From Leptogorgia sarmentosa (taxonomy: Eukaryota): a stretch of DNA of 64,000 bases. Below the pieces are notes generated by a model, which was given only the letters and a program-made list of their open reading frames with translations, was not told the DNA's origin and did not search any database. The stretch covers positions 25,544,001 through 25,608,000 of the forward strand of contig OZ210885.1 of NCBI GenBank assembly GCA_964658305.1, in the 5' to 3' direction. Shown here in pieces: positions 6,146-39,112 of this stretch (its first letter is position 1; the number at the start of each line of letters is the position of its first letter). The translations under genes were made by a program, and so were the position numbers.

Positions 6146-6262
6146 ACGCGGTGCTTTCAATATTATACGCGGTGCTTTCAATATTATACGCGGTGCTTTC
6201 AATATTATACGCGGTGCTCTCAATATTATACGCGGTGCTCTCAATATTATACGCGGTGCTTC
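6146..6262 (+). repeat. 21-bp tandem array (~5 copies, cggtgctttcaatattatacg), left subterminal repeat of element A
   Basis: Read directly. Its reverse complement cgtataatattgaaagcaccg matches the right-end unit cgtataatgtttaaagcaccg. Confidence 0.9.
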
Positions 6263-8163
6263 AAGCACATTCTGTGCTTGCAACGTAATATGCGGTCGTT
6301 TCATCATTATTATGATCCCTGAGCCAATACGTTTGGTCAGCGGTATACGCCAGCGTATCTCGATATACGTCATTTTATACAAAACAATGATGTAACAGTG
6401 CGATCACGTTTCAGACTTTCAGTCACTCGGGGTTCAAAATTTGCAAGTTTTGTGTTGGCTGCCACGAAATTATTTTAATATCTAAGAGTTTTCTGGCCTT
6501 TCAAATCGAAATTAGGCTGATTTTCTAAGTATGGAAGAAATACTTCAATCTTTGAATTTGGGGACATTGTTTGGGCGATTTCAAGAACAGCGTATGGAAC
6601 CACAGGCTTTTTTAACTGCTTCTGATCAAGACTTGGTTCGTCTAGGCGTAACTACGATTGGCGATCGTATTCGCCTCCGCGATGCATGTAAGAAAAAAGT
6701 GGACGAAAACACTGCGTCGACAAGCCAAACATCTGCTGCACGTCAAAAGCGACTCTCGATTTTTAATCCACGGAGGCACAACAGCCGTGGCCAAGCACGT
6801 GGCACGGCAAGAAGCTCGAGTAGTGCGAGTAAGAGGGGGACAAAGGGCAATTCATGGATGCCGATGTTTGTTTGCTTGGCAGATAGCACTGCATCGAAAA
6901 CGCCGTCATCTTTGGAGAAAGAAATTCTTTTTAAAGCCGGGTTGGGGGTGAAGAAGATTAAATTGGACATTCAAGATGACGAACAGACTGTGCTAAACAA
7001 AATTACATCAGACGAAAGGGACACCACTGATAACGTTCTTGGATTTTCTCAACTGAAAACGTGCAGGGGGTATGAAATGATGCGATGCCAACCAAATTGT
7101 AGGGATCTGTCTATCATCGACTGCTCTTGGAATGCAAAAGATCTGCGTGCAAACATGGGAGGAGGACAAGGGAAGATTTATTTATGACCCATTCAGAAGT
7201 CTCTATCAACAAAGCCAATAGTAGCAGAAAGTCAGTCGGAAGTGAAAGAGAAATGCCATATGTGTAACCAGGAAATACTTGTTCGGAAGCTTCATGATCA
7301 TTTATGGTCTTGTACTGAGGGGTTGCTATCGAGTGATGATGATAGTGCAAATGAGAATACCACGACCGAGATTATCCCCACAGTAACAACATCAGTTGCC
7401 ACCGCAGTAACAACATCAGTTGCCACCGCAGTAACACCACCTGTTGCCACTGCAGTAACACCACCCGTTGCAACCACAGAGACACCTTTCATTGGAACCA
7501 CATATTCAACCACAGTGACATCATCTGTTGCTGCCACCTTGACCACCATAACCAATACCACCACAATAACACCATCTGTTTCCCAATCTGTTTTCCAACA
7601 ATCGTCTGACAACATCTTAGACATTCCCAACAGCTCAAACATGCCTTCCTCTTCTACTCAATCATCCATCACACTGGTCGACCTGACACACATGACAACA
7701 GAAGTCAACAGTAACAGGCAATCAACAGATGAAATTGTTGAAGACACTGCCACCTACTGTCAGCAACATAATGTATCAAATCCCGTTGAAATTCTCAGGT
7801 GTTGTCAAACAAAAATGGTAATAGGAAGAGCTTTGGAAGTTCGATCTGTGGATGAAGCAAATGAAGGAGCGACAAACTTCATCATGGTAGATAGGCATAA
7901 TCTAATTACAACAGCATTTGATGAAATTTTGTGCCTTACTGAATACAGGAGAACATTGCAAGTTCAATTTTATGGTGAGGTATCTATTTTATCAAAATAT
8001 ATGTGATTAATCTAGTCTAGCAATATTTTTTAATTATAACTTTGCTTGAACTGTGAGAAAGTTCTGTTCCTCTTACAGGTAAGCTAACTGTTTCATTAGG
8101 TGAATGTCAAATACTAACATCTAACACCAGACAATTTTATACTCTTCCATAAAAAGGGAAAAT

Positions 8164-11100
8164 TGTTATGAATCGTGATAATAGTTATGATTCCCTTTAT
8201 TCAACCCAACACCCTATTTGCTCAACTGACTAAAAAACTAGATTACATGAATATTTAAAGGCCAAATCACGTGTCAATCAATGTTCCCCTAGCTATGTAC
8301 AAACAAAACAGTTAATTAAAATACTTGAGTTCATGCAATTATAAATGTCAATCAGCTTATCTCAAAAATAAAAATTACTGCAATTCTTAACTATAATCTT
8401 ACCACAGTATCTGACACTGCCCGAGGTTTCTAAATTATTTTTTGATGAGAAACTAAATTAATTCTATTAAAATACTATTCCATTATAATTAGTCATAATC
8501 TCTTGACTTTCGTCTATATAAATTCATATAAGATTATTAGTTCTACATTTTCTGCTATATGTTCAAGCCTCAACTGGCTTCGAGTTGACTTCAATCAGTA
8601 TTAGTTGTTGAATTGTCCGTCTCAACAATGTTGGTCGGTTCTTACTTCCAGTAACCTTTACAATTACCGCTCTGACCTTGCCGTCTCTACCCGTTATCAG
8701 CCCCTCTACTTTACCGAGTTTCCAAAAAGCTCTATTCGTTGACTCGTTCTTTAAAATGACTATATCGCCTTTCGAGATATTGGTTACCGACCTTTCTTGC
8801 TGTTGTCGTTGAATTGAATGTTCTCGCAGTTCTGTGAGATACTCGGTTCTCCAACGCTTCGTTAAACTTTGTAACAATAACTTCTGAGGACGTCCACGCT
8901 TCGTTAGGGTTTGATAAGTACTCAAAATTTCGTGATGGTTCGAATTTGGAATTGACGTTATTCTTCGTCCGTAAATAAGATCAGAAGGGGTCAAGGCATA
9001 CGAAATAGACTCTTGGTCGTCGTACACGTATGTGATTGGTCTTGCGTTTATCACACCTTCGATTTCTACCAAAATTGTACTGTTCGAAATTCAACGTAGA
9101 TCTCCCGAGTATTTTCTTGAGTGGTCGTTTCACGCTACGGACGAGACGCTCCCAGTAACCACCCCACCAAGGGGCTTTCTCTATTATAAAACTCCACGTA
9201 ATTCTTTGGTTAACTAGATAAGCCCGAACTTCTTCTGCCCGAGTTATCTTGCATATATCCTTACATGCCGATTTAAATGTCTTAGCATTATCTGAATTCA
9301 ACGTTGCTGGCAGACCTCTACGACTCGCAAATCGTCTAAATGCTAATAAAAACGCTTCGGTACTTAATCCGTGAGTAAGTTCCAAATGTACCACTCTTGT
9401 AGCTGCACATGTGAGCAATGAGATGTACACCTTTAACGTTTCATTCCCTTTTGATAGCTCGTCTACAACGTACAAAGGGCCTGCGAAATCAAGCCCAACA
9501 TGAGTAAACGGTGGTTCTTCGGACACTCTTTCACTCGGAAGATAGGCAAATGAAACACTATTGTACGGAACTCCTTCGAACTTACGACATACTCTGCAAC
9601 TTTGAATCAATTTCTTAACAGCTTCGCAACCACGAATTATCCAAAATCCCTTACAACGAATGACTCAATTTTTATCAAAATAAAGTCCAAATTGTGTGAC
9701 ATAAATTGGAGGCGATAAGTGCCCATTGTTGGCACGATCACGCGACAGAAATTCAATCTCTTCAGTGAAAGAACTAGCTTGAACTACCTTGATCCATGTC
9801 GTTTCTGCTTCGTCAAGTTCGACTGAATTAAGCTGTCCGTAATTAGTCAATTCGTTGTTATTTGTATTAGCTACCTTACTCTTTTTGATTCTTTGGATAA
9901 ATTTCAACACCAACGCGGTGACTCGTAATAATCTCGTTAGATCACGATAATGACCAGCATTAATTATCTGATTAACTTTCTTAAATTGATTCTTGACAGA
10001 AACACTTACCAAGGAATGCGTAATCTTTGGCGAATTTTTGACAGCCTCTTGAAGAACTAATTCGTTGGAATTCGGGTTTATAACTTCAGGCCACTTTGTT
10101 TCGGAATGAAGGAGAAATTCTGGACCATTCCACCAGGTTGAATTATTTGCGAGGTCTTTCGCGGCAATTCCTCTCGAAGGCTGGATTCAAATGACGCCAG
10201 GAATGCTTACTCGTTAATTCACCTATCTCGCTAACACGATGTTGAACGTACTGTTTCCAATTTCCCACATTTTTGATCCAACATAACACGGTCACAGAGT
10301 CTGTCCAAAACGTAACATTGGTACAATCGAGCCCCGCGCGTTTGAGACTGTCCACAAGTCGAGCTAAGATTAATGCCCCTAACAACTCTAAGCGGGGAAT
10401 TGTCTGGGTCTTCAAAGGTGTGACTCTTGACTTTGAAGCAACTAATCTTACGTCAATCAGTCCGTTTTCGTAACAAGTTCGCATGTATACAACAGCAGCA
10501 TAAGCCAACTTGGACGCGTCAGAAAATACATGATATTGTATTTCTTTCGGTACTGATGAGAAGTAACACCGAGGTATTTTAATATCACAACGCTGCTTAA
10601 GCTGACACAAATAAGCCTTCCATGCTTTAAGTAAATTTGATTGTAACTCACCGTCCCATTTATGTTTTTGAACGCAAAGCTCTTGAAACAAAATTTTCAT
10701 TCCAATTGTAAAAGGAGTCAAAATACCAATCGGGTCGAATATCTTAGCTGTGACCTTGAGCACAGATCTCTTGCTGAGCGGTAGATTAATCGCATAATCA
10801 AACAATTAGTCATATTCAAAGTAAAATTCATCGGCTTTAGTGTCCCAATTCAGTCCGAGAACCTTTACCGCAGAATCTTTCGTGTTAGAATTTACTGTTC
10901 CCGTTGTAGATTTGGCGTAAGATTCGTCGTCTTCTTCTATTGGACCAATCAGTACAATTTGAGCTTGTTGATGAACATTTTCGGCTTGCATAATCCTCTC
11001 ACGCAACTCACGCGAATTTGTATGCCATTTTCTAAGGTTAAAACCACCTTCAGACATAATTTTCTTTGACTTTTAGTAGATCTCATACGCTTTCTCTTCG

Positions 11101-13485
11101 TTTAAATCCCCTGAAACAAGATCATCTACATACAACGACTTCTCGATTAATTCCACTAATTCAGGCTCACTTCGTTTGTACAGTTCCAGATGATGTTTGA
11201 TAGTGGCTCCCAAAATAGAGGGGGATGGCTGTAATTCAAACACCAGGCGATTAAATCGATACTGCACAATTTCAGGCGTAGCTTCGTTTGGATTTGCGAA
11301 CCATAGAAATCGAAGCATATCTCGATGTTCCTTCTTAATTCCAACCATTAAAAAGGCCTTTTCGATGTCGGCAGTTAAGGCAACAGCTTTTGAACGAAAC
11401 TTGATCAGCGTATCAAATACAAGTGGAATATAGTTTGGGCCATTATGTAAGCAATCGTCAAGCGATCGATTGTCCTTAGTTGACTTAGCAGAACCATCGT
11501 AAACTACTCTTACCTTCGTCGTTTCTCGACTCGTTCTAACGACCCGTTCTAACGACCGCATGATGTGGCGAAAAATGCACTCCCTTAACTTCGGGTTCTT
11601 TCGAGACTTCGTTTGGCACCCTTTCAATTATTCCAGCCTTGCATTGGTCTCGAATTATTCCGTCATATTCCTTCAATAAAGCGGGTTTCTTTTTCAAGTT
11701 GTAATACAGATATCGTAGGCGCGATACACACAGACCATAGTTATTGGATGTTGGCATACAATCATCCTTCCATGGTAAACTCGCTTCGTAATATGGACCA
11801 TTATGTGAAATCTTGGGCTTCGTACACTCGGGTGTAATACTTGGATTTATATCAGTTGTTGATTCCTTAATGCCTATAGCCTCAGTTTCCCAAAATCGTT
11901 TCAGTGTGTAATTCAGCATTTCGTCATTTTCCGGTACAATGTCGTGTGGAACAGCGTTAAAACCACTGACGACCAGATTTGAAACGACCTTGGAACTTGT
12001 ACAATTCGTGGTTTTCTTTACAGGACCAGAGAGTAACCAACCAAATTTGCTATTAACAGCCGTAGGACCAGCATGTCCACGAATTGTTTCGCCTTCAATA
12101 AATTCCCAATAATAATCGGACCCAATTAGAACGTCAATGGGCTGATTTTCAATGGAACTATCTGCTAATCGCAACCCGTGTAAATGCGAGTATTACTTTA
12201 CATTAACTTTCCCAGGAAGCGGTGAACAAATCACAGGATAACTAAGAGCGGATATTTCAAGTAATTCTCTTGCATTGGTCTTCAGTCTCATGGCAGCAAC
12301 GTCAGATCTTTGTTTCCTGTAGCCCTTTTCCCCAAACGTATTTAACTGGAGCGTTTCGGTCTTTGTTGTTTTAAGTCCAAGCCTTGTTTTCAGGTTATCA
12401 GTGATATAAGAACGTTGACTTCCAGTATCAAATAAGATACGCACGGTTGTTGACTTCGATCCGTCTTCGTTCAGTGCAGTCACTGTTGCAGTTTGTAGTA
12501 AAACGTTCTCCTTTGTTTTTGCACAGGTCGTCCGTGTCGCCGGTTTTTCTTCGATATCTCGTTCTTGTTTATTGCTCTCTTCATCATTCGTTTCTCGTTT
12601 ACTACCGAGACTTGCATTCGAGCAAAAAGAATGATGGTGATGACCTCCGCAACTTCGACAACCTTTTGGCTTTCCACAATTCTTTACCTGATGTCCTGGT
12701 TTCAAACATTCAAAACATCTCTTAGATTCGAACAAAATGTTCCTTCGGATTTTCGTATCGGTTACCTTGGCGCACGATGCTGAATAATGTGGAGCCTCGC
12801 AGTATACACACTTGATTAACGAGCTTCCCTTGTCGTTGAGTTCAGCCTTCGAAAACAATGCACTAGTGGTTGACGGTCGGTTACAATGATAAGTTGACGG
12901 TTTTTGATCGGTAGCCCTTACTCTTTCGCTAATTTCCTTCGCTTCAACTTCTTGACGTATCACGTCGAGTAACTCGTCGATTTTCCACACACTTCCCTTC
13001 GCAACTCTTGCTATTCGTAGTCGTAATTCACTCGGAAGTTTAGCCATCACAATAGGTATCAATAAACTGCCATACTGTTCGGAATCCACTCCAAGAGACG
13101 CCAAACCTCGAACATGAACAGTTATCTTGTCATACACATATCGTAGTGAAGTAAATCGATCAGAATCGTTGCAACCTTGAATCTTTAACAATTCGTCCAT
13201 ATGAGCAGATATGATCTGTTGTGGCTGGCCAAAACGTTCCTTCAATAATTCAATAGCCGAATGATAGTTAGCTTCAGTGAGTGTCAAACCTTGTATTGTG
13301 CGAGAAGCCGTTCCTTCCAGTAGCGAAATTAGATAGTTGAACTTTTCAACCGGTGATAAAGTAGTATTCTCATGAACGGCAGACTTGAAAGAATCCCAGA
13401 ACGATTGCCATTTGGTTGTTTCTCCTTTGAAATTGGGTAGTATTAACTTTGGTAATCTCGCACTTACATTGCCATTGGGTGTCGT
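8164..13485 (-). mobile_element. BEL/Pao LTR retrotransposon, 5'-truncated: gag, protease, RT, RNase H, integrase and 3' LTR (8164-8416)
   Basis: RLPKLILPNFKG..WQSFWDSF gag, CCHC knuckles, LFDTGSQRSY protease, ADIEKAFL/YVDD RT, FSDAS/IPRLEL RNase H, LDFAGP/SDNA/GGYWERLV integrase. Fragmented by stops and frameshifts. LTR reads TGTCAG...ATAACA with AATAAA on the minus strand. Confidence 0.9.
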
Positions 13486-16400
13486 CTTGAAAGAGACTCC
13501 TACAAGAGCAAAAGTTAACCTTAGAAAAGGCCCTAGATATTTGTCGACGCAGTGAGACAACTTCCAAGCAATTGCAAAATATGATAAGCCTCACTGAGAA
13601 GTCAATCGACCACGAAATCAAAGCAATTAGAGACCAAGGTCAAGGAAATCGGCGCTGTGATTTTTCAAGACCCCATGAGAAAAAGCGTTGCAAATATTGG
13701 GGGGGAATGCGTGAATTTGATAAGAATTCATGCCCAGCATACGGAAAGTCGTGTAAGAACTGTGGGTTTTGCAATCATTTCTCAAGGGTTTGCCAGAAGA
13801 AACGGAATGAAACTGCACGATCGGTCAAGGAGATTACCAAAGATGTTTCTAGTGACTCTGGTGATTCAGTGTACACAGTTTCTGTTTTGCCCGAGTTTCC
13901 GGATGATCAAGAAGTTTTAGCGGTTCGAACAAAACATAAAGAATTCAAGAGTAAAATTCTAACCGTAATGAACATTAAAGGGGGAAAAGAGACAAGTTTT
14001 CAAGTCGATACGGGCGCCACTTGCAATGTGATTAAACAGAAGGAACTGTCTGGGACAAAATATATGAAGAAAATTAAGAAAACAAAGCAAGTCCTCAAGA
14101 TGTATAACTCCTCCACTTTGAAACCAGTCGGTCAGTGTATGGTGCAATTACAAAATCCCGAAACATATAAGAAGTACAAGGTTGAATTTACGGTTATCGA
14201 CGGCGAGAATTGTACGAATCTTCTAGGAAGTCGAGCAGCACAGCAGATGGGTCTTGTTAATGTGAATTACGATAACATGAAAATTCTGTCAGAACCAGAT
14301 CAGAAAGGTGATTCACATACCACAATGACGTCATCAGAGTCAAGTCAGACGGAAAGGGCGACGCATTCCATATTGACCTCTTCTGAATCAAGTCAGACTG
14401 GATTGACCATGGAACAGATCACTAGTGAATACAAAGATATTTTTGAGGGACTGGGGCAGCTGGGACCGAAACTCCATCTGGAACTAGAAGAAAACGTGAA
14501 ACCTGTACAACAAGCAGTGAGAAAAACACCTGAGTCTATGAAAGATCCGCTGAGAAGCCACCTAGCTGAGCTCGAAGAGAAAGGTATAATTGAGAGAGTG
14601 TATCAACCTACAGAATGGATAAGCTCTATTGTCGTTGCAAAGAAATCCAATGGAAATATTCGCTTATGCCTAGATCCTCGTCCACTTAACAAGGCACTCA
14701 AGAGATGTCACCACCCCATGCAGACCATCGAAGATATATTACCTGAGCTTGGTAAAGCAAAAGTCTTCTCTAAGTTGGACTGTCTCAATGGTTATTGGCA
14801 ATTACCTTTCGGTAGGTATAAATGGAAACGCTTACCGTTTGGTATTTCTCCAGCTGGTGAGATATTTCAGAGTCGGTTAGACCAAGCGATCGAAGACCTT
14901 GAGGGAGTTAAGACAGTTGCTGATGATATTCTGGTGATTGGGAATGGCGACTCATTAGCAGAAGCAATCACCGACCATGATGTCAAAATGAAGCAACTGT
15001 TGGATCGATGCAGAGAGCGGGGAGTAAAGCTGAACGGAACAAAGTTTTTGCTGAAGCAAACGTCAGTTCCTTATATCAGACACGTTCTTACATCTACAGG
15101 GGTGAAACCTGATCCAGCCAAGGTTGAGGCGATCATTAAGATGGAAAGACCCACAAACGTAGAAGGAGTACGCAGAATCATGGGAACCATAAACTATTTA
15201 GCCAAATTTTTGCCACAGTTGTCTGACGTTTCGGAGCCTTTGCGAATACTTGCTAAGAAGGACGTTGTTTTTGCATGGGATCAAGTTCATGACCAAGCAT
15301 TCACGAAGTTGAAAGAGCTCGTTACCAAGCCGCCCTTACTCAAGTTCTATGAACCTGAGAAAGAATTGGTCATACAGTGTGATGCAAGCGAAGGGGGACT
15401 TGGGGCTGCTTTATTGCAAGATGGCAGACCTATAGCTTACGCAAGTCGGGCACTCAATTCAACTGAGCGCAATTACACTCAAATTGAGAAGGAACTCTTG
15501 GCGATTGTGTTCGGGGCAGAACGATTTCATCAGTACACATTTGGAAGACCAGTATGGGTTGACTCTGACCACAAACCATTGGAAACGATATTTGCAAAGC
15601 CACTCGTTTCTGCGCCCAGACGATTACAAAGAATGTTGATGCGGTTACAAATGTATGACCTGAGAGTAAGATACAAAAGAGGGACTGAATTATATCTGGC
15701 AGATACGGTAAGTGGGCACTATCTGACAGAGGTACAAGAAACCAGAGAAGCAGATGTTCTGAATTACTTGTCCGATGTGGAGACAGAGCAGAGCGAGCAT
15801 GAGGAAATCATGGAGATCAACCAATTGTTGGCGAGCGAAGATATTGCTAACATGTATCGAGACAAAACAGATCAAGATGAAGATTTGCAGGTGTTAAAGA
15901 GAGTCATACAGTCCAGGTGGCCAGAGGTTAAGAACAACCTGCCAGCCGCAGTGGGGTCCTACTTTCATATCCGGGATGAAATGGTGGTCCAAGATGGGCT
16001 GATATTACACGGTGATCGACTAGTTATTCCTAAGGCACATCGAAAGACAATGATGGAAAGTCTTCATGCCAGTCACCAAGGGATCGAAGCAACTCTGAGA
16101 AGGGCGAGAGAGACCATGTACTGGGCAAATATGAATGCGGAGATCAAAGATTATGTGAAGAAATGCGACTTATGCTGTAGTATTGGTCCCAAGCAATCAA
16201 AAGAAACACTCATCAGTCACGAGGTTCCTGACCGGCCATGGGGAAAGATCGCCACAGATTTGTTCGAGTTCGATGGCAAGGAGTATTTGGTAACAGTCGA
16301 TTATTTTTCGAATTTTTTCGAGATTGACCGCCTCTACAGTACGCAGGCCGTATCCGTTATTCGAAAGCTCAAGGCACACTTGGCGCGGTATGGCATTCCT

Positions 16401-17440
16401 GAAGAATTAATAAGTGATCAAGGTCCTCAGTTTACCTCTGGGGAATTCAAGAATTTCTGTGCGAGTTATGGAATGAAGCATACCATGACAAGCCCGCATT
16501 ATCATCAGGCAAATGGAATGGCTGAAGCTGCTGTTAAACAAGCGAAACGAGTCCTGAAAGTAGCCAAAATGTCTGGACGAGACCCACATTTAGCCTTGTT
16601 GGACCTTAGAAATACTCCTCAAGAAGGGTTCGGTTCAAGCCCAGCACAGCGATTGATGAGCAGGCGGACAAAAACTGTTTTGCCAATTTCGAAAGGTTTG
16701 CTAAAACCAGCAGTTATTCAAAAAACAAAACAGCAAAGAAGAGCGCGTCAAGAACGACAGAAGAAATTTTACAACCGGGGAGCAAGAGATTTACCAGCAT
16801 TGGCTGCAGGTGATCAAGTATGGATACAGCCAGTCAAAGTTGGGGATCGAGAATGGAACAAAGCAACCGTTTTAAGAGAAGCGGGTATCAGGTCTTACGA
16901 AGTCGAAACGGAGAATGACCGAACCCTCATTCGGAATCGAAGACATTTGAAGGAAGCAAAATCAAGATCCGCAAATGGGGATAAGCATCAACAGATCCAA
17001 GAATTACCTAAAACACCTGAAGTTGCCGAGCAACAATCGAGTGATTTTGATGGAGAAATAGACCCTATTCCAGAGCTCATTCCGGATCCTGATCGAGGCG
17101 TCCAAAGCAGCACTGAGTTCGGTAGAGACAATATAATTACTCGAACGCGGAGTGGTCGAATTAGTCAAAGACCAAAGTATCTGGACGATTATAGTACATA
17201 GGGTGATCATAAACGTTTACCTATTTATCAGAGAAAATAGACAATAACAATAACAAATTCTCTGTGAAAGGGAGGATGTTGCAATATTCAAAAAAAGACA
17301 ATAAAAAAATATATTTGCATGTGTAATTAGCTAGTAGCCTACTTAAGCCAAGTGAACATTTCAAATATCTGTATTAGTTAGCTAAATAAATCGATATAGG
17401 TTGTAGCTGGGCTGTGTGCTTTCATGTTAAATAAACGACA
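13486..17440 (+). mobile_element. Gypsy/Ty3 (Mag-like) LTR retrotransposon, 5'-truncated, with PPT and 3' LTR (17277-17440)
   Basis: Gag tail LTLEKALDICR, then the long pol ORF. PPT gaaagggagga|TGTTG...CGACA. Confidence 0.9.
13572..17201 (+). CDS. Gypsy gag-pol polyprotein (knuckle, protease, RT, RNase H, integrase), with a small in-frame deletion in RT
   Basis: 1209-aa ORF with VDTGA, CLDPRPLNKAL, LPFGI, VADD, CDAS..GLGA, HASHQG..C..C, DLF/SDQGPQF/NGMAE. GYWQ runs directly into LPFGRY, so the usual TTF segment is missing. Confidence 0.9.
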   Translation: MQNMISLTEKSIDHEIKAIRDQGQGNRRCDFSRPHEKKRCKYWGGMREFDKNSCPAYGKSCKNCGFCNHFSRVCQKKRNETARSVKEITKDVSSDSGDSVYTVSVLPEFPDDQEVLAVRTKHKEFKSKILTVMNIKGGKETSFQVDTGATCNVIKQKELSGTKYMKKIKKTKQVLKMYNSSTLKPVGQCMVQLQNPETYKKYKVEFTVIDGENCTNLLGSRAAQQMGLVNVNYDNMKILSEPDQKGDSHTTMTSSESSQTERATHSILTSSESSQTGLTMEQITSEYKDIFEGLGQLGPKLHLELEENVKPVQQAVRKTPESMKDPLRSHLAELEEKGIIERVYQPTEWISSIVVAKKSNGNIRLCLDPRPLNKALKRCHHPMQTIEDILPELGKAKVFSKLDCLNGYWQLPFGRYKWKRLPFGISPAGEIFQSRLDQAIEDLEGVKTVADDILVIGNGDSLAEAITDHDVKMKQLLDRCRERGVKLNGTKFLLKQTSVPYIRHVLTSTGVKPDPAKVEAIIKMERPTNVEGVRRIMGTINYLAKFLPQLSDVSEPLRILAKKDVVFAWDQVHDQAFTKLKELVTKPPLLKFYEPEKELVIQCDASEGGLGAALLQDGRPIAYASRALNSTERNYTQIEKELLAIVFGAERFHQYTFGRPVWVDSDHKPLETIFAKPLVSAPRRLQRMLMRLQMYDLRVRYKRGTELYLADTVSGHYLTEVQETREADVLNYLSDVETEQSEHEEIMEINQLLASEDIANMYRDKTDQDEDLQVLKRVIQSRWPEVKNNLPAAVGSYFHIRDEMVVQDGLILHGDRLVIPKAHRKTMMESLHASHQGIEATLRRARETMYWANMNAEIKDYVKKCDLCCSIGPKQSKETLISHEVPDRPWGKIATDLFEFDGKEYLVTVDYFSNFFEIDRLYSTQAVSVIRKLKAHLARYGIPEELISDQGPQFTSGEFKNFCASYGMKHTMTSPHYHQANGMAEAAVKQAKRVLKVAKMSGRDPHLALLDLRNTPQEGFGSSPAQRLMSRRTKTVLPISKGLLKPAVIQKTKQQRRARQERQKKFYNRGARDLPALAAGDQVWIQPVKVGDREWNKATVLREAGIRSYEVETENDRTLIRNRRHLKEAKSRSANGDKHQQIQELPKTPEVAEQQSSDFDGEIDPIPELIPDPDRGVQSSTEFGRDNIITRTRSGRISQRPKYLDDYST

Positions 17441-20177: not shown

Positions 20178-20299
20178 GTTTTATGTGTGGATAAAATATG
20201 AGTGGGCATTATATGAAGTTTTCAAGGAAAAATAGCTGCTGTCCAAATATTCTGGCTCACAACGGTACATATAATAATGACACTACCGAACGAAATGAT

Positions 20300-21178: not shown

Positions 21179-21192
21179 TTCACAGTGTAATA

Positions 21193-27786: not shown

Positions 27787-29745
27787 TAACGCCGCGGATT
27801 TTGACTGGAATTATGAAGATAATGACGACATTATACAGGTAGATTCTCAAATTAACACATATGAATATGAACATTCAGATTGTAAAGATGTTAAATCTTG
27901 CAACAGAGTTCAAGGGAGACTTAAACTACATATCCAATTTTGGAAAACAATTGGGGCACCCGACTTTATTGTAGACGCTATTGAAGAGGGTTACAAAATA
28001 CCCTTCCGTGAAACTCCCAAACCTAGGGTCTTTCAAAACAATCTATCTGCACTAAAGGACTGGCAATTCGTACATGAATCTATTACTGACTTACTAAATT
28101 CCGACCGCATCGCACAAGTCACAGAAAAGGATCTGATTGTATGTAGTCCACTATCAGTGTCCACTCAGCCAAGTGGCAAGAAGAGGCTCATTCTCGATCT
28201 GCGATTTGTCAATACGCATGTATACAAACAAACTACGAAGTTTGAAGATTGGCGCACAGCCTTTGAGTTCTTTGACAAAGGTTCCTTTTTCACTAAGTTT
28301 GACCTAAAATCGGGGTATCATCATTTAGAAATTTTCCCGGAACACCAACCCTTTCTGGGGTTCAGTTGGAAAATGGACAAGACTAACCCCAGCTATTTTA
28401 TGTTCACTGTATTGCCATTCGGATTAACCTCAGCACTCTGCATCTTTACCAAACTGTTACGCCCACTGGTAAAGCATTGGCGCTCTAGAGGCATAACTAA
28501 CGTGGTCTATTTAGATGACGGTTTCGATATTGCAAGCAACATCAACACTTGTACAGATAATTCCAACATTATTCGGTCAGATCTTCATCAAGCAGGCTTT
28601 ATCATTAATGACGATAAGTCTGTATGGCAGCCAACGCAGTCCATCATTTGGCTAGGAATACACTGGAACGGGGTCACCAGCTCAGTTAGCATTTCCCCTG
28701 ACAGAATCCATAAAACAAATAAGGTTCTGGAGAAGTTGATCTCCCAAAAGAAAGCGTCTGGTAGAAAACTGGCCTCAGTCATAGGAATGATAATTTCTAT
28801 GGGTCCTGTCATAGGCAATTTGACCCTAATTATGACACGTCACTGCCAGATGTCCGTCGCTTGTACAGATTCATGGGATTTAGTATTCGACCTACATCGC
28901 TATTGCTTGTTAGAATTAGAATTTTGGCAAAGCAACTTACGGTCTGCTAACAATCGTTCAGTGGTTTCTAGCCAGCCCCCTCAGGTAACATTTTTCTCGG
29001 ACGCTAGCGCAGTTGCCTGTGCAGCACACTCAGGCGATGGCAACATGATAGCACATCGCATGTTCACGGATGCCGAAAAAGCCGAAAGTTCTACTTACAG
29101 GGAACTCATTGCCATTAAGTTTGCACTCGAATCATTTAGTTCTTCCATAACTTGGTTTACCGATAGTCAGGTAGCGGCAAAAATCATCATAGTATGAAGT
29201 TCAACCTGCATGAACTGGCTTTTGCTGTTTTCTCAATTTGCTTCAAAGCCCAAATTCGATTGGATATACAATGGATACCTCGGACAAAAAACGAAAGAGC
29301 CGATTATCTTAGCAAAATTATAGATTATGACGACTGGGAAATTACACACCAATTATTTAGTTTATTGGAGGCAAGGTTTGGCCCACACACAGTGGACTGT
29401 TTTGCCGATTTCAAAAATCACAAAGTGTCTAAGTTTTACTCCAAGTTCTGGAACCCCGGGTCGGCCGGGATAAATGCATTTTCACAAAGTTGGGCAGGCG
29501 AAAACGCTCTTTTGGTACCTCCAGTCCCACTTGTACCTAAGGTATTAGCGTTTATGCACTATTGCCATGCCAAGGGGACCCTGATAGTCCCCTATTGGCC
29601 TTCGGCTCCATTTTGGCCTATCCTCGTTTCTCGATATTTCCATAACATTAGAAATCCGTCTTAAGGCAGGGCAACAACCAAAAATGCGTTCTTGGTTCAC
29701 ATGCATGGGAAGGATACATTATAGTTTTTCGCATTGAGTTCTCTT
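27787..29745 (+). pseudogene. RT - RNase H - adenine-methyltransferase-like pol of the YR retrotransposon, frameshifted near 29190 and 29660
   Basis: KRLILDLR, DLKSGYHH, LPFGL, YLDDG; SDAS, SSTYREL, WFTDSQ, WIPR..NERADYLSK; HTVDCFA..FYSKFWNPGS..NAF..W..EN..LVPP. Confidence 0.85.
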
Positions 29746-30008
29746 AACTCCATATGCAACGAATTACTTAAATTTGCTTACATTGTCGGCTTACTATGTA
29801 AAAAAAAAAAATAAATAAAAAAAAGTATTGGTCCCTAGCCAGGTGGCTGCGGGAGAGCATCGTCTTGGAACATTGTGTGAACGGTCCTGCCAGCCGGATG
29901 GCTTTAGAGTAGGAATATTTTGTGATCTCCTAATTGTCTACGTTTTCTGAATAAAGCGTGTCATTATACAGCGTACTGTTAGTACAGTTTCATTTTTCTT
30001 CATTGCAG

Positions 30009-31015
30009 GACCTAGTTTCTGCCCATTGTTGGGGAGAGGTCCACATCGATAACAGAAAACAAATTGTATGTCAGGTTTTGCATTCCCGAGCTAATTCCAC
30101 GGAAAAAGTTACGCTTCTCGATACCAAAAATTCAAGGCATTCGTCCAACAGCAATATCGAGGTCTTCCAAAACCTATTTTCCCGTATACTACGTTGGTAA
30201 TTTTGCAATATCTTTCACACCTGTTCGAAACCAAACGCATGTTTAGTGTCGTTTCACAAGCTTTTTGCGCGTTGAAGTGGATTCACGACCTTGTCCCTCT
30301 CGAGTCCAATCCTGCAGATTCAGCTTTGGTTCGGAATATCGTCGAAGCCAGTAAACGGTCGCACCATGTTGCACCAACAAAAAAGGAACCTATCTCCATG
30401 AATATGTTAGAGCAAATGGTGGATAAGTACGCACATCTGGCCGCTGATCTTAAGGCTATTAGAACGGCAGTGTTGCTATCCTTGGGTTTCTTCGGCTTAT
30501 TGAGAGCCAGTGAATTAATAAACATTAAAGCGAAAGACATAACCATTAATGACAACCACTTAGTTATTACAGTCCCCAGAAGCAAGACCGACCAATATAG
30601 AAATGGCAGTCAAGTTTACATTGCCCGCACTAACGGACTAGTCTGTCCACATGCTTTGCTTCTTCGGTATTTTGATATAGCTAATATTCGACCATCTTCA
30701 GAAGAACATATCTTCAGGGATATCAGGAATACTGGTAGAAAAAATCGCAAGACAACGCTCGGTTCAAGGCCCATGACCTACACTAGGCTACGTGAAATCG
30801 TAAAAGAAGCGATCGCCAGCATTGGCGTAGACCCTACAACATATAGTACGCACAGCCTACGGTCTGGAGGAGCCACGTTCATGGCAAACTCTCATGCTGA
30901 TAATCCACATCTCAATCGTCTATTGAAACTTCAAGGAAGGTGGAAGTCGGACTACTCAAAGGACACTTACATAAAAGATACTTTAGAACATAGATTGATG
31001 TTAAGTAACACATAA
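30009..31015 (+). pseudogene. Tyrosine recombinase of the YR retrotransposon (5' part frameshifted; ORF 30194-31015 open)
   Basis: GLLRASEL, SKTDQYRNG, HSLRSGGAT and GRWKS..SKDTYI give the R, K, HxxR and Y catalytic residues. Confidence 0.9.
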
Positions 31016-33206
31016 AAAAAAAAATTTAAAAAAAACAACAAAAAACAAAACAAAAAAAACAGTGGAATAAATTCAAGTTACCGGGCAAGTGCTTGCACCG
31101 TAGCCTGCCATTCTATACTGTTATGCTCAGTGGGAAGAAGGAAAATGATTTTCCTTCAGATGAACGCAGAGAAGCAGAAGGAAACCGTATTTTCTTTGTC
31201 ATCATTGTCCACAATAATATTAACTGGATCAGTTTGTGAACCAGTTGAAACCATCTTGGGCATTGATAAATACTTTGACAACAAGTCATTAGTAATGCAG
31301 GTTTGTGTCCCTTTTGTGACCATGGTTTTGTTTGTGTGCCTTGACTCCTCCCAAAATATTCCACTGGCAAAGTCTGAACATGGACTGAGTTGGGTCTGTC
31401 ATATTCACCTAATATCTCCTGTTGAAGTGTTGCAGCACCACATGTAGCTTCTCCAATTTCTGTTTCTTCTTCATTGGTTGTATTTTGTCCTGTTTCTTGT
31501 GATATTAAGTAATCAACTTCCTTAAAGACAAATACAACTGTGTGCATTTGAACAATTAAGAGGGTATATATTGAGGGTATGTATCACCAGATATTTTATT
31601 ATGAGTGCTTATTTGAGAGGAGGTCATAGAAATATTGTGGTATTACAGGCTATACACTACCATTATAAAAGATGTGGAAGTAGTACACTCTTTCTCCTTG
31701 ACAAAATTCCTGTCTTTCTTCTTTTTGTTTCTGATGGCTTGTCTAATTTAGCTGCATCAAGTGCTTTATTTATAGTCGGTATGGCATCAGGTTTAAGAAT
31801 TATTTTCTGCTTACCAGAAAATTTAATCGATTCCAGAAAGTAGGGAGAATGTGAGGGGATATACGCATCTGGGCTAAAGTGTGATGAACACAAACACATG
31901 CATTTTGACGGAACAAAGTTTTTTCGCTTGCAAAATTCAATCCAGATGTCGCGTCGCTTTTTTTCTTTATTTATTGGCTTTGGGAATGAAAAAAACTGTA
32001 TTTTGTTTTCAATATTCTTTTTGCTATCGCTTGTGCATCCGTAAACAGGACAGTACATCATGGTTTATAGAAATATTGTTCCTGGCAATATATCTACATT
32101 TCGCGCGATAATTCAACCTAGGTTGTGACGTCCACATATTGAAGTTTACATAAATTAGCATACAGGAATTCAATCCAATTCAATTCAAAGATGGTGGACG
32201 AAACACAATATTTGGGTAAAAACAATCGCCAATTTCTGCGAAAGCAACTGTCTCAAAACCAAACTTTTACTCATTTTAAGAATGCTATAAGGTAAGCTTT
32301 ATTTTAAAGTTGAAAAAAAATATATTGCTATTTCCCTTTAAGCTTGTTTCGGTCAGTGTTCGTGTAGTTTTGGCAAGCATGCCTTCGCGGTCCGCGCATA
32401 TGGGAGTTCACGCGTGTGACTGAGCGCTTCAAGTGTGGCCGAGAACCAAGCATTAAGTTACCTGAGTAATATTTAAAACGTTTTATGCAAATAAATGTAG
32501 TATTTCGCACCAAATTCAAGTTTATATTATAGTCCTAATAACGTACGAATAACAAATGTTCTCCAACAAGGGGGAATTTCGTTCTCGACCAATCAGCGCA
32601 TTTGTTGACATTTTTCCGCTAAGCCAATCAGAATGCGTAAATCGCTATTTTGTGAACAAAGATGGGTACAGATATATACTTTACTCTTCGGCTTTGTTGA
32701 TATTTTAATCCGAAATTAGAATATGTTGTTTAGGAAAGATTTTCCCACAATATTACTGTGGCAATTTGTAAATAATGGCGATTTTGGGGAGATATGCACG
32801 TCCAAACTTTGCCTCGCGCAAGTATAAATAATGCCCTTCGAATCCACCAACCTTTTGACATCTCAACTTATTAACTTGTTAATTTCCCGTGTCTAAACAT
32901 GGATCAATTCACGATCAGAGTGTCATGAGTACGGTGGCCCACAAGTGCAATGCACAAAGCAAATGTTCAATGCAATATAAGGATTTCAAATGCAATTAAA
33001 CTTTTCACAATGCAAAACAAAATTAATCGATACAAAATGAAAGTATTTATGTTGCAAAAATATATATTGTTACAATGCAAATTCAAAATTTAAATTCTTG
33101 ATCAATACAAAAACAAAGTTTATCCAATGCAAAAAGATTACCGCAGGACGTGTACAACGCGGGCGCATACAATGGTCCCTAATTTTCAAAAATACAATGT
33201 TTTGCA

Positions 33207-34481
33207 ATGTTTTGCCCTTTTTGTGGAGAAATTGTAGAAGATTTATTTCAGTTTTGCCCTTTCTGTGGAAATGAATTACAAAATGTAGCAAACCAGCCAG
33301 CAGAAGACGTGGAACCAGTCTTCCTTGGCAATGAAATATCGTGTGAGGAATTGATTAAGCGTTATTTCAGGCAAGGTTTTATCTATGAAAAAATTCTGTT
33401 GTTCCTGTCTAACTATCATGGCATCCACATGTCTCTCCGCACTCTTAAAACCAAACTTAATTCCCTTGGTTTGCAAAGAAGAAGCAGTGAAGTAGATATG
33501 GACATTCTACGTGATAGGATTCGACGAGAATTGGATGGCCCAGGAAACTCGGCTGGTTATCGTTCGGTCTGGCATACGTTGAAGCTCGAGGGTATGCAAG
33601 TACCTCGAGAAACTGTTCGACTTATAGTCAAGGAATTGGATCCAGAAGGTGTTAAAGAAAGACGAGCAAGAACACTTAGGCGACGAACATACAGATCACC
33701 CGGGCCAAATTATGTGTGGCATGTGGATGGGTACGACAAGTTGAAACCATATGGATTCCCAGTACACGGCTGCATTGATGGATACAGTAGAAAAATCCTG
33801 TGGTTAAAGGTATCTAGGACTAACAATGACCCAGCGGTGACCGGCCAACATTTCTTAGATGCTATTGCAAAGTATGGTGGATGCCCAACATTACTGAGAA
33901 CTGATAATGGAACTGAAAATGTGAATATGGCTGCAATACAATCTTATTTGCGCAGTTTCGGGGAAGATGATTTCGCTGGAGCCAGTGCACATAAGTATGG
34001 GTCATCACCTGCCAATCAACGCATAGAAGCTTGGTGGGCGTTTTTGCGAAAAAATCGATCTAATTGGTGGATCAACTTTTTCAAGGACCTTATTGATGAA
34101 GGGCAGCTTAATATGGCTAATAATATACAAAAAGAGTGTTTATGGTTTTCCTTTTCAGGTCTAATACAGGCTGATTTGAATTTAGTGCAGCGTCACTGGA
34201 ATAGTCATTATATACGGAAGTCAAGATTCGATACGGTTTCTGGCCGTCCAGATGAGCTTTATTTTCTCCCTGAGTGCTCTGGTGCAACTGACCATATTCA
34301 ACCTATCGATGACCAGGATTTTCAAGACATGTCAGCATATTGCCATCACTACAGTGATGAGGACAATATTTTCCAGGAGTATTTTCAGATGGTTAAGGAA
34401 CAACTTGCAATTTCCTCACCCACAGACTGGAGAGTTGCACTAGATATGTATACTCGATTGTGTGAAATTGCACAAACCTAA
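33207..34481 (+). CDS. Intact zinc-ribbon + HTH + integrase-core DDE transposase (424 aa)
   Basis: MFCPFCGE..FCPFCG; WHVDGYDKLKPYGFPVHGCIDGYSR; RTDNGTEN; NQRIEAWW. Uninterrupted ORF. Confidence 0.9.
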   Translation: MFCPFCGEIVEDLFQFCPFCGNELQNVANQPAEDVEPVFLGNEISCEELIKRYFRQGFIYEKILLFLSNYHGIHMSLRTLKTKLNSLGLQRRSSEVDMDILRDRIRRELDGPGNSAGYRSVWHTLKLEGMQVPRETVRLIVKELDPEGVKERRARTLRRRTYRSPGPNYVWHVDGYDKLKPYGFPVHGCIDGYSRKILWLKVSRTNNDPAVTGQHFLDAIAKYGGCPTLLRTDNGTENVNMAAIQSYLRSFGEDDFAGASAHKYGSSPANQRIEAWWAFLRKNRSNWWINFFKDLIDEGQLNMANNIQKECLWFSFSGLIQADLNLVQRHWNSHYIRKSRFDTVSGRPDELYFLPECSGATDHIQPIDDQDFQDMSAYCHHYSDEDNIFQEYFQMVKEQLAISSPTDWRVALDMYTRLCEIAQT

Positions 34482-34838
34482 GTTGTCTATGTGAACATAA
34501 AACTGTTATTTCATTTAAATTTTAAAACAGTGTACTAAAGTGAACAAACACTCTTAAAACATTTTAAAAAACACTGCAATTAACAAGTAATAGTTAAACA
34601 TTAATTAATATGTTAGGTAGAAATGTTTGAAATAAATAATAATAACAATTATTTAATGAACTTTTAAACTTAAGTTGCAATATGAAATTTATAAGTACAA
34701 TATGGTTGAACACTAAAATATTGACAAATTCTTGATCTTTGGCTATTTTGATCTCCAAATGAAGTCACAGTTTAATTGAACAAAAAACAGTGTGAGGAGC
34801 ATGCTAGTCTCAATTTTAGATGAATCGACTAAAACTGT

Positions 34839-37800
34839 TTATAATTTACTGAAGATCCCTCCGTTTATCAGTGCAGTTAATAAAGCATGGGTAATGCTGT
34901 TTTCCTGAGTATGTTTGTTGACATATAGATATAGCATGTTTGAGCATGTCTGTGCTGAAGGTATAATTTTGTTCTCATCATGAACAAATGAAATGCTTGG
35001 GTGAGGATTAAAGCCAACTGTTGGTATATTTGTTGCCCCAGTAGCAAACAAAAGAAAATGGCACGGTTTCACCAACGGGATAAAATCAAGTTCAGTTTGT
35101 GTCAACTCAATCCCATCGTCTTCCAACTCTTGTTTCAGTGTGCAATCTATGATGTATAAATGCATTTTTAAAACTTTCTTTGATGTTAGTTTACAGATGG
35201 ACAGTACCATTCAACTATACCAAACACCAACTACTTTAAAAAGCCTGTTTTAACTCCGAGCTAGCCCTAACTCCCCCAGACATACATTTCTATTCGCCCT
35301 ATTTATTTGTCCCACATCGAAATTTTAATGAATAGCTTTTAAATAATTAGCATTACCTTCTGCTGACTTAAGGAATGCAACAAATTTTGCCATGATTATT
35401 TCTTGTGCTTGTCTCCTATTGTTACCGACTGGTGCAAAACTTGGCTTCAGAATACTGACAACTTTCTTTGCATTGAGTTTTTCATTACTCAACTTAAATA
35501 GATGCTCTGCCATTCCTTTATTTTCACGAATGAAACTTAGAACCTGTAAAAATAACAATAAATGTAGTAACTGTAGTAACAGATATATATAACAACAATA
35601 AATTGGTAAACAGGTAAACATTTTTGCCTTTGAAAAGTAATAAAAACTAAATTTTATTTGTTATTTTTTTGGCCTGATGTAACAAATGATGAGAGTTTTA
35701 ATGCAAAACTTTCAACCCTTGGAATATATGGAGCCTACATTTCTGGTAACTTTAACATACATCAATGACTTTGATGTATGTTAAAGTTACTACAATTCAA
35801 AGACTTCAAGATTCATCAAAATATAACTTACATCATAATATCTTAATCCTTCAAGTAGCTGATCTAACATAGCTTGACATTTCACAATCACATAATATTC
35901 CACAACTTCATTTATAAATTCCTGTTTTTTCTCCATTTTAACAAAAACAGGCAACCCATCTATTTCATATTTCCATTCACACTGTGCCAAGAATGAATCA
36001 AACTCTGTCTGGGTTGTACACATTTTCAGCTAGAATGTAGAATAAAATAAATGCGAAATTAACAGTTATTCACTCTGGTTGCCTAATCAATTTAACACAT
36101 GTCCACTTATCATGACATCAAGAAATACTATGTATCATCCTTAATTGGATAATAAAACTATAACACTAACTCAGCTACTATAATTATTACACTAGCACTG
36201 TTGTTAAAACCATAAGTGCATAAGTTACATACTGTACCTTGTTAAGTGAATCCCTAACATTCTTATCTGGGACCTCATCAATAGCTGGAAAGGATTTGTC
36301 AAAACCACTCTGAATGTACTGACAGATACTAGTGCTGAAGAGTCGTGGAAATTCCCCTCCTTGCACAACCATGGTTGCCAGCATTCTTCCAACAATCAGA
36401 AAAGCATTTTTCTGCAATGCACCGACATTGCACCGCAAGACGTGCCCACAAGTTGTGTCTATTCAATTAGATTACATTTATTATCACAGAGTTTATAAAA
36501 ATGATATTAATACTCCTGTACTTTCTATAAAGCAAACACTCTTAACTCAAGACATACTTGTCAAAGTCCTTATCAATTGTCACTACTTAGAAGTAAAAGC
36601 ATTCTTACTTGTAACTGTTCCACTTTCTCTTGCTATAGCTCCCAATAATAAGTGAAAAAATTCCCTTCTCGGCCCGCCAAGATCAACTGCATCTTCTTCG
36701 CTTTCAAAAGTTGCAAACGTAACTTGGAACAACCCAGATCCTTTTAAGAAGCCATTCTTCAGAAAGTAAGGGAAGGCAGTTGGCCAAATGCTGAGTCTGC
36801 TGACCACTATGGTGCGATTTGGCCCATGAACTTTAGCTTCCGCAAACTGCTTGATGATGGTTTGAAAATCATCAATGGAATGAGTAGGTGTCTCATCAAC
36901 AGCTTTAGCAACATCATTAGACTGAGTATCAAGCAATTCAATTGTGTTCAAGCTATTATCTATAGCTCTTTGAACAGCTTCATTTTCATCAATATCAAGA
37001 GGCCAAATATAAAAACATTGATCGTATAATTAATTTATGAGCATGAAAGTACATTATTGTGTGGAAAGCAGAGGTGGCAGATGTGACTAGAATGGTGGGT
37101 GTATCAGTCATGATGGTTGGGCATTTAGGATTGAATATTGATCCTCCCCTGGGGGATCCCCCCCCCCCCCCCCCCCTCTTCAAGGCTTTATCAACTGGGT
37201 ACTCTGTTTTCTCTCCCTCACGAAACCAATATCAAGGGTGCGATGAAGAGTTTGGTCATCCTCTATTTTGTAAATAAATTAAGTCAATTACATTTTCCAA
37301 ATGAAATTTTCCAACATTCAAGATAATATATTTAATAGAAATAATATATCTAAAATGAACTTACAAAAAATCTGCAACTTCATAACACATAAGTACATCT
37401 TCTGTATCCAAGTTGCTCGTGGTACTGGACTCAGCAGCAGAAGCTGTGTAACCATTGCTGCAAAGGAAATCTATGTCCTCATCTAGCATCTCATCCATGT
37501 TGATGTTTTCAAGTTCTGTGTCAATCGGACTGGTACCTGGAACATCAATGATATCTTCTCTTTCTGGCACAGGAGCCAAGAATAGTGTTATTCTTGAATA
37601 GGATTTACCAAGGTCTTCTTTATACTTCTTTAAAATGAATTCTTCATCTGTTCCAGGTATGGTACGGGCTAAATTTGTATCTGGGTAGGCAAGCACATAA
37701 TCGCGTTCTTTTGAGAATGTTCTGTCGTAATCCTTCCATTTTTTTAAAGATCTTTCTAATACCTCATCGTAATTCATGTCTGTTGAAAGCTTCATAGGTA

Positions 37801-38140
37801 GGGTCTTACCAAAAACTCTTTTAAGGGAGCCAGTGAAATCAACATCCATGAGGCCAACGTTTATTAGTACTTCCTCCTTTTTTTCAATTTTTTTCTTCTT
37901 TGCCTTTGGCTCAAAGTGTGACCTCCGCTCGGTTTCCTTTACTTTTTTGAATGAAGAAAAGCTGGGGATTGGATTGGATGCATTTCTTCTCACAGGGACG
38001 CTTGTTGCTGTCGAGCTGCTAGCGCCTTGACTTGTGCCTTCCTCGCTGGCGCTACAGTTAATAGACGATCTTTTCGAACCACAACTTGGACAAAATTTGA
38101 ACTTTTGTTCCAGCTGCCCTCCGCAATTACCGCAAAACAT
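34839..38140 (-). CDS. Multi-exon zinc-ribbon + UIM-like + HECT (G2E3-like) E3 ubiquitin ligase of element B (about 6 exons; exon 2 acceptor uncertain)
   Basis: MFCGNCGG..FCPSCG start; DENEAVQRAIDNSL (UIM-like, ~36990-36949); DAVDLGGPRREFF; GRMLATMVVQGG; LDQLLEGL; LLFATGA..P; PSAQTCSNMLYL with catalytic Cys at ~34945. GT-AG boundaries are visible at most junctions. Confidence 0.8.
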
Positions 38141-39112
38141 AACAATTTATATGTAAAATTTATATTATATGAATTATTCATAAAGTAAAGTGCAGAAATG
38201 TTTGAAAACGTGGCCCGCACTGTTCTGTCTTCTGTGAATCTCGTGTTGTCGCTGTATGCGCCCGCGTTGTACATGTCTGCGGTAATCTTTTTGCATTGGA
38301 TAAACTTTGTTTTTGTATTGATCGAGAATTTTGAATTTGCATTGTAACAATATATATTTTTGCAACATAAATACTTTCATTTTGTATCGATTAATTTTGT
38401 TTTGCATTGTGAAAAGTTTAATTGCATTTGAAATCCTTGTATTGCATTGAACATTTGCTTTGTGCATTGCACTTGTGGGCCACCGTACATGAGTCATGAT
38501 ATGCACTACACGACTAACAGATGCTTTTGCGAACGTTTCAATCGCTTTTATTTTGCGAAGGAAAGTGAACGATAGTCTGAAACTCCTGCCTGCACTGCAT
38601 CCAGTGGTTGTTGGTGGCTTGTCCTGAGCAGGAGTGGATTAGCTCAAACTTTTTAACTAAATATTCTGCTGCTTTGGTTTTTAGACAATCAATTTGCTTT
38701 CTGCTGAAGTTAAATTTTTCTGGAGGGACAAATGATGACTGAAACTCCTGCATTTCTTTCTTGCATTCTCACTGGGATCAATTGACTTTAACGCCACCCC
38801 ATGTGCATGGGTGGCGTAGAAAAAGCTGTTCATGCCAGCTTCTGAACAAGGTTCCTTGTAAAGAAAAATTTGTCGATTTTCTGCCGTAAAACTTGTCAAG
38901 GAAAAATTGCTTGTCTTGGCGGGGTTTAATATTGTACGGAACTACTGCCCAAGTAAAATCTAGTTGGAAACTTCAGTTTATACAAATCTTCTCAAATTGG
39001 GAAATAGAAATCCAAGCATTCAGGCATGAATTAGTCAGCAAAACGTATATATGTGTTGAAGCATAGCGGACGTGTAATTTTACGTTCTGTTAAAAATTGT
39101 TTGCTTATCTCA

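Follow-up and report, generated by a model that had tools for sequence, protein, structure and literature searches.

Two DNA transposons of the IS3EU/GingerRoot type lie in a 64,000-nt stretch of Leptogorgia sarmentosa DNA (assembly GCA_964658305.1, contig OZ210885.1, positions 25,544,001 to 25,608,000), here called the window, to which all coordinates refer. Each combines a DDE transposase gene with a convergent gene for a HECT-type ubiquitin ligase, the partner, and within each element the two proteins begin with the same kind of module, a SAM domain in element A and a zinc ribbon in element B. This matching of the transposase and ligase N termini is real and goes beyond chance. Related elements point to the terminal inverted repeats (TIRs) as the likely route by which one module came to stand on both genes.

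Matched N-terminal modules in two IS3EU elements

The four N-terminal peptides quoted in an initial annotation of the window, which had read them as a SAM pair and an identically spaced zinc ribbon pair, were all located where it had placed them, and both readings held. An isolated 60-residue piece of partner A scores 25.7 bits against SAM_1 (cut-off, 23), and its structural model matches the SAM domains of tankyrase, BICC1, and Eph proteins, tankyrase being the best match (Z, 9.4; root mean square deviation [rmsd], 2.0; 59 residues aligned). Among A-type transposase homologues, SAM_1 was detected in 31/85 and SAM_2 in 26/85 (E of 0.05 or less), the transposase SAM profile finds the tankyrase SAM at an E of 2e-4, and residues 1 to 60 in the model of homologue P0126 (pLDDT, 91) match the SAM domains of Shank3 and tankyrase (for Shank3: Z, 9.4; rmsd, 2.1; 60 residues aligned). 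Both isolated N termini of element B exceed the Zn_Ribbon_1 cut-off of 25, with 27.8 bits for the transposase and 26.4 bits for the partner, and share the same spacing. Profile-profile comparison yielded probabilities of 96 to 98.4 for SAM/SAM (E of 5e-15 at 98.4) and 99.0 for ribbon/ribbon versus 0.5 and 0.1 for the crossed pairs. Likewise, the local alignment scores were 75 for the B pair and 59 for the A pair, with P0126 as the stand-in for the transposase, whereas each of the two crossed pairs scored 16. The two SAMs align over 54 to 61 columns and end in a common LRxxC motif.

The proposed layout, a DDE transposase convergent with a HECT-type gene, was likewise recovered in both elements: Pfam rva_4 is present in both transposases, a HECT domain in partner B, and a HECT N-lobe in partner A. 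Element B (32930 to 38487) is complete. It has TA...TA ends and a 6-bp target-site duplication, CATGAG (plus strand; 32924 to 32929 on the left and 38488 to 38493 on the right), and the empty site (joint of 32923 to 38488) is present in 4/4 runs, its flank being a multicopy repeat for which paralogous sites are possible. A second, inverted copy of the repeat in which element B is nested lies near 57.5 to 58.8 kb (32697 to 32930 corresponding to 58572 to 58805, and 38488 to 38766 to 57557 to 58578). The left TIR (32930 to 33166, plus strand) and the right TIR (38258 to 38487, minus strand) are identical at 227/230 aligned bases, and their inner edges lie 41 nt from the transposase start codon and 118 nt from the ligase start codon, respectively. 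Transposase B (33207 to 34481, plus strand) is an intact single open reading frame (ORF) of 424 codons that encodes the zinc ribbon (33207 to 33278), a helix-turn-helix, and an rva_4 core with D174, D233, and E274 (Pfam rva_4, E of 1e-34; rve, E of 1e-8). Its DDE core without HHCC and its first Asp, D174, positioned between 100 and 300 residues from the start, are, together with the termini and the 6-bp duplication, features of IS3EU/GingerRoot elements, and the model of a transposase homologue resembles integrase cores (Z, 16.2; rmsd, 3.4; 187 residues aligned).

Partner B is encoded on the minus strand. Its first exon (37364 to 38140) comprises the zinc ribbon (38069 to 38140), a basic stretch, and a conserved domain of about 100 residues (37571 to 37873) without a Pfam family, for which an Atlas search returned unnamed eukaryotic clusters alone and no fold was assigned. 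The HECT exons occupy five frames between 34842 and 37029. The last frame matches PF00632 at 37.4 bits (cut-off, 23.9) and another matches at 15.1 bits; the catalytic-type Cys codon (34944 to 34946) falls within a SAQTC motif. At the DNA level, the two ribbon-coding segments are 56% identical, and 12/24 residues are the same, 5 of these through synonymous changes. The claim that the modules lie just inside the TIRs and have diverged in DNA stands for element B. No RNA data set carrying element B was listed, and protein queries against viral contigs revealed no related locus. In the same contigs, 37 matches to the terminal 15-mer of element B were dismissed as chance hits, there being no transposase or partner domain at those sites.

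Element A is a dead copy, as judged from an in-frame stop in the partner (7185 to 7187), a first intron filled by retrotransposons, the lack of a detectable C-lobe, and at least three frameshifts in the transposase. The gene that starts at 6531 on the plus strand encodes the HECT-type partner, and the gene that starts at 20177/20165 on the minus strand encodes the transposase. Sub-terminal 21-bp repeats on the left (6146 to 6310, plus strand), which adjoin BEL/Pao-derived sequence, are 72 to 83% complementary to the array on the right (20258 to 20809, minus strand). A search of element A for its true termini and target duplication was negative; its relatives L002, L026, L044, L049, and L072 (L numbers denote sampled loci) carry a 6-bp duplication. 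The first exon of partner A (6531 to 7980, plus strand), delineated by Pfam, fold, and similarity, encodes the SAM (6531 to 6701), a ubiquitin-like fold (about 6852 to 7208), a small zinc finger, a Thr-rich linker, and the start of the HECT N-lobe. The middle domain resembles ubiquitin-like folds with a middling score (Ufm1: Z, 6.4; rmsd, 2.9; 79 residues aligned), and profile comparison produced no alignment between the A-type and B-type partner middle domains (E of 0.41). Intron 1 holds an insert of about 8.6 kb (8563 to 17200) that is foreign to the element's own genes and consists of BEL/Pao and Gypsy-like sequence, recognized by ORFs and DUF1759/DUF1758, the Gypsy label being a manual ORF reading rather than a tool result. 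Exons 2 and 3 (17488 to 17985, plus strand), which encode the HECT N-lobe, were identified by tblastn with the L071/L088 ligases (E of 1e-7 to 1e-13). The decayed transposase A (18770 to 20177, minus strand) comprises a SAM, a helix-turn-helix, and an rva_4 core (Pfam E of 1e-16 and 1e-50), with frameshifts near 20100, 19480, and 19110. The first of these splits the SAM (19993 to 20168) into two frames with profile matches of 39 and 16 bits. Intact homologues of this transposase are 71 to 76% identical.

Distribution and descent of the modules

The transposase lineages of elements A and B are about 25% identical, and the nearest named relatives of the window proteins come from corals and octocorals. 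Four home-made profiles were used to scan 445 homologues, namely, 120/1653, 120/182, 150/1011, and 55/55 of the listed relatives of the four proteins. Among these listed homologues, the SAM was found in 115/120 A-type transposases, 39/55 A-type partners, and 0/270 B-type proteins, and the ribbon was found in 69/120 B-type transposases, 82/150 B-type partners (80/105 of those with a long N terminus), and 0/175 A-type proteins; the positive counts are inflated by queries that contained the modules and profiles built from the same sets. The zero counts and the cross-gene matches are not circular. In particular, the partner SAM profile matches 106/120 A-type transposases, and no crossed module case occurs among the 445 proteins. 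Across these sequences, module type co-varies between the two genes, a check that the initial annotation had proposed, and is fixed per lineage.

Module type also tracks the transposase lineage in a FastTree phylogeny (171 rows, midpoint-rooted, with no outgroup and no approximately unbiased test). In this tree, the SAM transposases form one group nested inside a lineage whose transposases start with a helical region and whose partners share the ubiquitin-like domain without a SAM, implying that the SAM was gained on both genes. The SAMs themselves group by gene, as two separate subfamilies of old standing: 134/134 have their nearest neighbor in their own gene class, the transposase and ligase classes split at 100/100 in a tree built on 67/134 rows with the bootstrap not settled, and identity is 0.47 and 0.55 within the classes and 0.27 between them. 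For the ribbons, the mean identity between transposase and ligase copies (0.354) does not separate the classes (0.362 and 0.393 within them), although 113/133 have a nearest neighbor of their own class.

Both SAM copies persist in cnidarians, molluscs, and a hemichordate, and both modules are conserved across animal phyla. The expectation of conserved modules was borne out to this extent: the mean identity of the transposase SAM is 0.46 versus 0.55 for the protein body, and half of the residues (12/24) are kept between the ribbons of element B. The ribbon is only 23 residues long, and conservation is confined to its cysteines and a few neighbors. The ribbons of L086 and L076, two loci of the B lineage, differ by 1 synonymous and 4 nonsynonymous codons, which gives no support for constraint, L076 being decayed.

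A scan for core motifs in 15/64 parts of a metagenome collection confirmed 534 loci, the best 80 of which make up the set described here; a further 22 loci came from host DNA that had been assigned to prokaryote genome bins. The A-side core profile scores best for 71/80 loci, 2 of which have the SAM (L084 is a SAM locus of the metagenome set), and the remaining 9/80 belong to the lineage of element B. In most A-side loci without a SAM, the first 90 or so residues of the transposase form a helical region, and the partners begin with one or two short helices, followed by the same ubiquitin-like domain as in partner A. Six loci illustrate this arrangement, with short amphipathic helices on the partner (L002, L026, L046, L071, L072, and L088), and L088, an A-lineage relative, retains the C-lobe with its catalytic Cys. 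Five helical-lineage elements are complete, with TATGG...CCATA ends and 6-bp duplications. At nine helical loci, cognate N termini are no more similar than noncognate ones (22.6 versus 22.8; p, 0.54), and the matched module is therefore not a rule of IS3EU. Insertion of the partner helix into the transposase bundle could be the ancestral mode of docking. The two genes are head to head in L003, one of these nine loci. More broadly, HECT-type genes and the transposase show a head-to-head or tandem arrangement in L003, L021, L022, and L134, which represent nested elements or other architectures. The partner N termini of L020 and L133 were searched for and not found.

Origin and retention of the matched modules

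The most direct evidence on origin comes from the sister loci L076 and L086 and favors what the initial annotation had offered as an alternative, namely, that an inward extension of the TIRs copied one N terminus onto both genes. At its left end, the L086 contig begins with the final 13 nt of a ribbon exon, followed by a donor site and an intron; this stretch and the ligase end of the same element share 94% identity over 87 nt (1 to 87 versus 5024 to 5160). Splicing of the 67-nt, phase-1 ribbon exon to a pyrimidine-rich acceptor would preserve the reading frame in either gene; the second exons run open for 440 and 710 codons, and that of the partner has no usable Met ahead of its conserved domain. 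It is likely, judging from these splice signals and frames, that the ribbon exon is used by both genes in the L086 family. L076 (1981 to 7960), 88% identical to L086, is a complete but decayed copy with a 6-bp duplication, and its TIRs align on both sides of the ribbon exon, which a 92-nt deletion took out of the left arm. The other sampled transposases of the sub-clade to which L076 and L086 belong are devoid of the ribbon, so the transposase ribbon seems to have been regained recently from the ligase end. At L081, the distance from the terminus to the start codon is about 130 nt, with no ribbon. Another locus, L136, contains a frameshifted SAM-like fragment (8070 to 8250; 19.7 bits; nearer the ligase class) about 300 to 500 nt upstream of a helical-start transposase. 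With no counterpart at the far end, this fragment was excluded as a paired module and may be an intermediate or a remnant.

These observations can be assembled into one explanation, which we regard as having about an even chance of being correct as a whole. A TIR would at times extend over the first exon of one gene, copying it to the opposite end of the element, and selection would then keep the copy as the contact through which the HECT ligase binds its transposase. After the edge of the TIR retreated, the two SAMs would have specialized into a heterotypic pair. The ligase would act as a transposition helper that ubiquitinates the transposase or proteins of the transpososome. Taken separately, an origin of the SAM pair in element A and of the ribbon pair in element B by TIR copying is likely, and in element B the TIR similarity breaks off 41 nt before a start codon, in support of such an origin. 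Retention of the matched modules as a contact between ligase and transposase is a prediction for which the balance is even. A HECT-type ligase is present in all three lineages (SAM, ribbon, and helical), pointing to a role of the ligase in transposition. ClpX acts on MuA to take apart the spent transpososome, and by this analogy the ligase might do the same after integration, the most plausible among the possible outputs, the others being limitation of the transposase level and marking of chromatin. Still more generally, the TIR of a two-gene transposon might serve as a domain-copying device, such that a small exon within it lands on both convergent N termini; in this speculative scheme, the device would have been used repeatedly, for the SAM, the ribbon, and the recent regain of the ribbon, replacing the ancestral helix-to-bundle contact.

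With regard to docking itself, the two SAM classes are asymmetric. In the ligase class, what we take to be the end-helix surface still has the canonical basic motif TIGDRIRLR; in the transposase class, this motif is altered (NRSDMMxLR), and a conserved acidic segment, EKITPD, lies on the presumed mid-loop surface. Such a difference is consistent with a heterodimer. Among solved structures, the closest SAMs, those of BICC1, ANKS6, tankyrase, and Shank, are all of the interacting kind. Complex prediction, a check that the initial annotation had proposed, gave a pass for SAM/SAM that falls at the lower edge of the mark, with an ipSAE of 0.34 compared with 0.00 for the best of 3 controls, at least 95% of contacts in agreement among three runs, and a partner pLDDT of at least 71. 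This prediction, which was made from single sequences without alignments, with a 71%-identical stand-in for the transposase, and gave no interface, lends weak support to SAM-SAM docking of ligase and transposase.

TIR-copied modules could instead perform parallel jobs, such as self-assembly, contact with DNA or chromatin, or binding of a common host partner, without the two proteins touching through the module. The evidence of origin from L076 and L086 applies equally to this scenario, the ligase SAM retains conserved acidic and basic surfaces and could self-associate, and the ribbon is tiny, weakly conserved, and missing from several transposase sub-clades. Conversely, both SAM copies are long-lived and have split into two profiles, as expected for a heterotypic pair, and the predicted SAM/SAM complex passes, if weakly, all of which makes parallel jobs rather unlikely. 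Less probable still is the favored proposal of the initial annotation, a swappable address by which each ligase recognizes its own transposase among related elements. Module type does co-vary between the genes, and an exon encoded in the TIR, as in L086, would tag both proteins identically and in a family-specific manner. However, only two module types with about three origins were seen, the type follows lineage, the SAMs group by gene and not by element, cognate helical pairs are no closer than noncognate ones, and most sampled elements have no matched module. Only in the TIR-encoded case, L086, did the modules of one element resemble each other more than they resembled those of other elements. 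An element-specific address was thus not upheld, even though the idea of an address, which concerns retention, is compatible with TIR copying, which concerns origin. Finally, each gene could have captured its SAM or ribbon independently in the two lineages. Two lineages amount to two events only, SAM and zinc ribbon are both promiscuous domain types, and BICC1 reaches 37 bits against the SAM profile of the ligase, so that a host source is possible. Such coincidence is nevertheless the least probable of these scenarios given that the paired modules have in common their position at residue 1, length, spacing, and, for the SAM pair, the LRxxC end, that zero crossed cases occur in the 445 proteins, and that the copying route is seen in L076/L086.

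Several observations weigh against TIR copying followed by retention as a contact. The loci showing both N termini are few, namely, one SAM/SAM, two ribbon/ribbon, one decayed, and nine helical, and the positive homologue counts carry the bias described above. No ribbon match was obtained for 51/120 B-lineage transposases, some of them truncated and their partners unseen, and the ribbon is therefore dispensable on the transposase side. Downstream in partner A of the window copy, no C-lobe carrying the catalytic Cys was detected. The TIR-borne exon is known from one family and two contigs, and no SAM was found inside any TIR among the sampled loci. Within L086, no more than the final 13 nt of the ribbon exon can be seen on the transposase side, the transposase frame has its own upstream Met such that use of the shared exon is predicted only, and the partner has no Pfam HECT match at an E of 0.001, its HECT-type assignment being by tblastn to relatives. 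As for the complex prediction, passes at 0.60 or under came from 5/78 solved complexes and from all 4 that passed among 180 mismatches, and SAM-SAM complexes have already been solved, so that the pass may reflect memorization by the model.

Relation to known systems and neighboring features

IS3EU/GingerRoot elements, with TA...TA termini, 6-bp duplications, and an integrase-like DDE core without HHCC, have been described from corals and other animals (PMC10045372, PMC6839031), and element B is alike in termini, duplication, and core. The main texts of these papers do not contain "HECT" or "ubiquitin," and their accessible portions describe no SAM or ribbon N termini and no TIR-encoded exon (PMC10045372, PMC6839031); Repbase entries and supplements may describe the second gene. 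A closer parallel is offered by the fungal TET+ IS3EU elements, which, in the portions of the report available, have a second enzyme gene, an alpha-kinase, opposite to the transposase, as well as TAYGG...CCRTA ends like those of element B, L002, L026, L044, L049, and L072 (PMC12730594). The fungal elements differ in carrying kinase and TET/JBP genes instead of a HECT ligase (the main text lacks "HECT" and "ubiquitin"), and no matched N termini are described in the available portions (PMC12730594). In maize MuDR, as far as the consulted part of the source extends, two convergent genes have their promoters and start sites inside the TIRs (PMC3440606). The likeness is that both genes share information encoded in the TIRs; the differences are that the shared part is a promoter in MuDR and a coding exon here and that the transposase is unrelated.

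Outside the IS3EU group, PIF/Harbinger elements provide a case of a helper encoded by the transposon itself, a Myb-like partner that binds the transposase. That helper is DNA binding, is not an enzyme, and makes its contact without a duplicated module, whereas binding is predicted for the partners described here. Contact between two different proteins through heterotypic SAM pairs, again a prediction in our case, is found for CNK/HYP and EphA2/SHIP2. Neither the N-terminal pairing nor a shared TIR exon was found in the literature searched, which did not extend to Repbase records, subscription journals, and supplements. The search likewise found no paper on HECT together with IS3EU or on a transposon-encoded HECT ligase; Repbase records and supplements may already note the HECT gene. 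Within this scope, the matched N termini and the TIR-encoded exon are a new variation on a known kind of transposon. If the explanation preferred here, TIR copying with retention as a contact, is correct, it would provide a route by which a protein-protein interface arises at once, through duplication of a self-associating exon onto two genes by a transposition repeat. The second gene of animal IS3EU elements, so far unexplained, also becomes testable, with element B being nearly intact, young, and small and the modules comprising 23 or 57 residues.

Transposon genes of this kind probably account for many of the "uncharacterized" HECT-type genes with a SAM or a ribbon that are annotated in invertebrates and fish. 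P0365 is a spliced B-type ligase that combines the ribbon with a ubiquitin-binding CUE domain and HECT (32.1 bits). In fish (P0241, P0243, and P0363), the B-type partner domain occurs in up to five repeats in annotated medaka genes and, in a carp gene model, is joined to part of a transposase, for which host recruitment and mis-annotation are both possible.

The window as a whole is transposon-rich animal DNA. P2RX7_C-domain and THAP-domain ORFs (23134 to 23802 and 31663 to 32064) lie within inverted repeats (22939 to 23102 and 32185 to 32349), and probably represent a further DNA transposon with two genes. A DIRS-like element with gag-like, reverse transcriptase, and tyrosine recombinase genes and split direct repeats extends from 26735 to 31015. 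An ORF for an endonuclease and reverse transcriptase like those of long interspersed nuclear elements (39963 to 43055) contains an exact internal duplication with a period of 1008 nt that keeps the frame. Finally, three transposase genes or gene fragments of the hAT-like (DUF4371) type are distributed between 43464 and 63539, together with a set of unassigned ORFs at 48797 to 51784.

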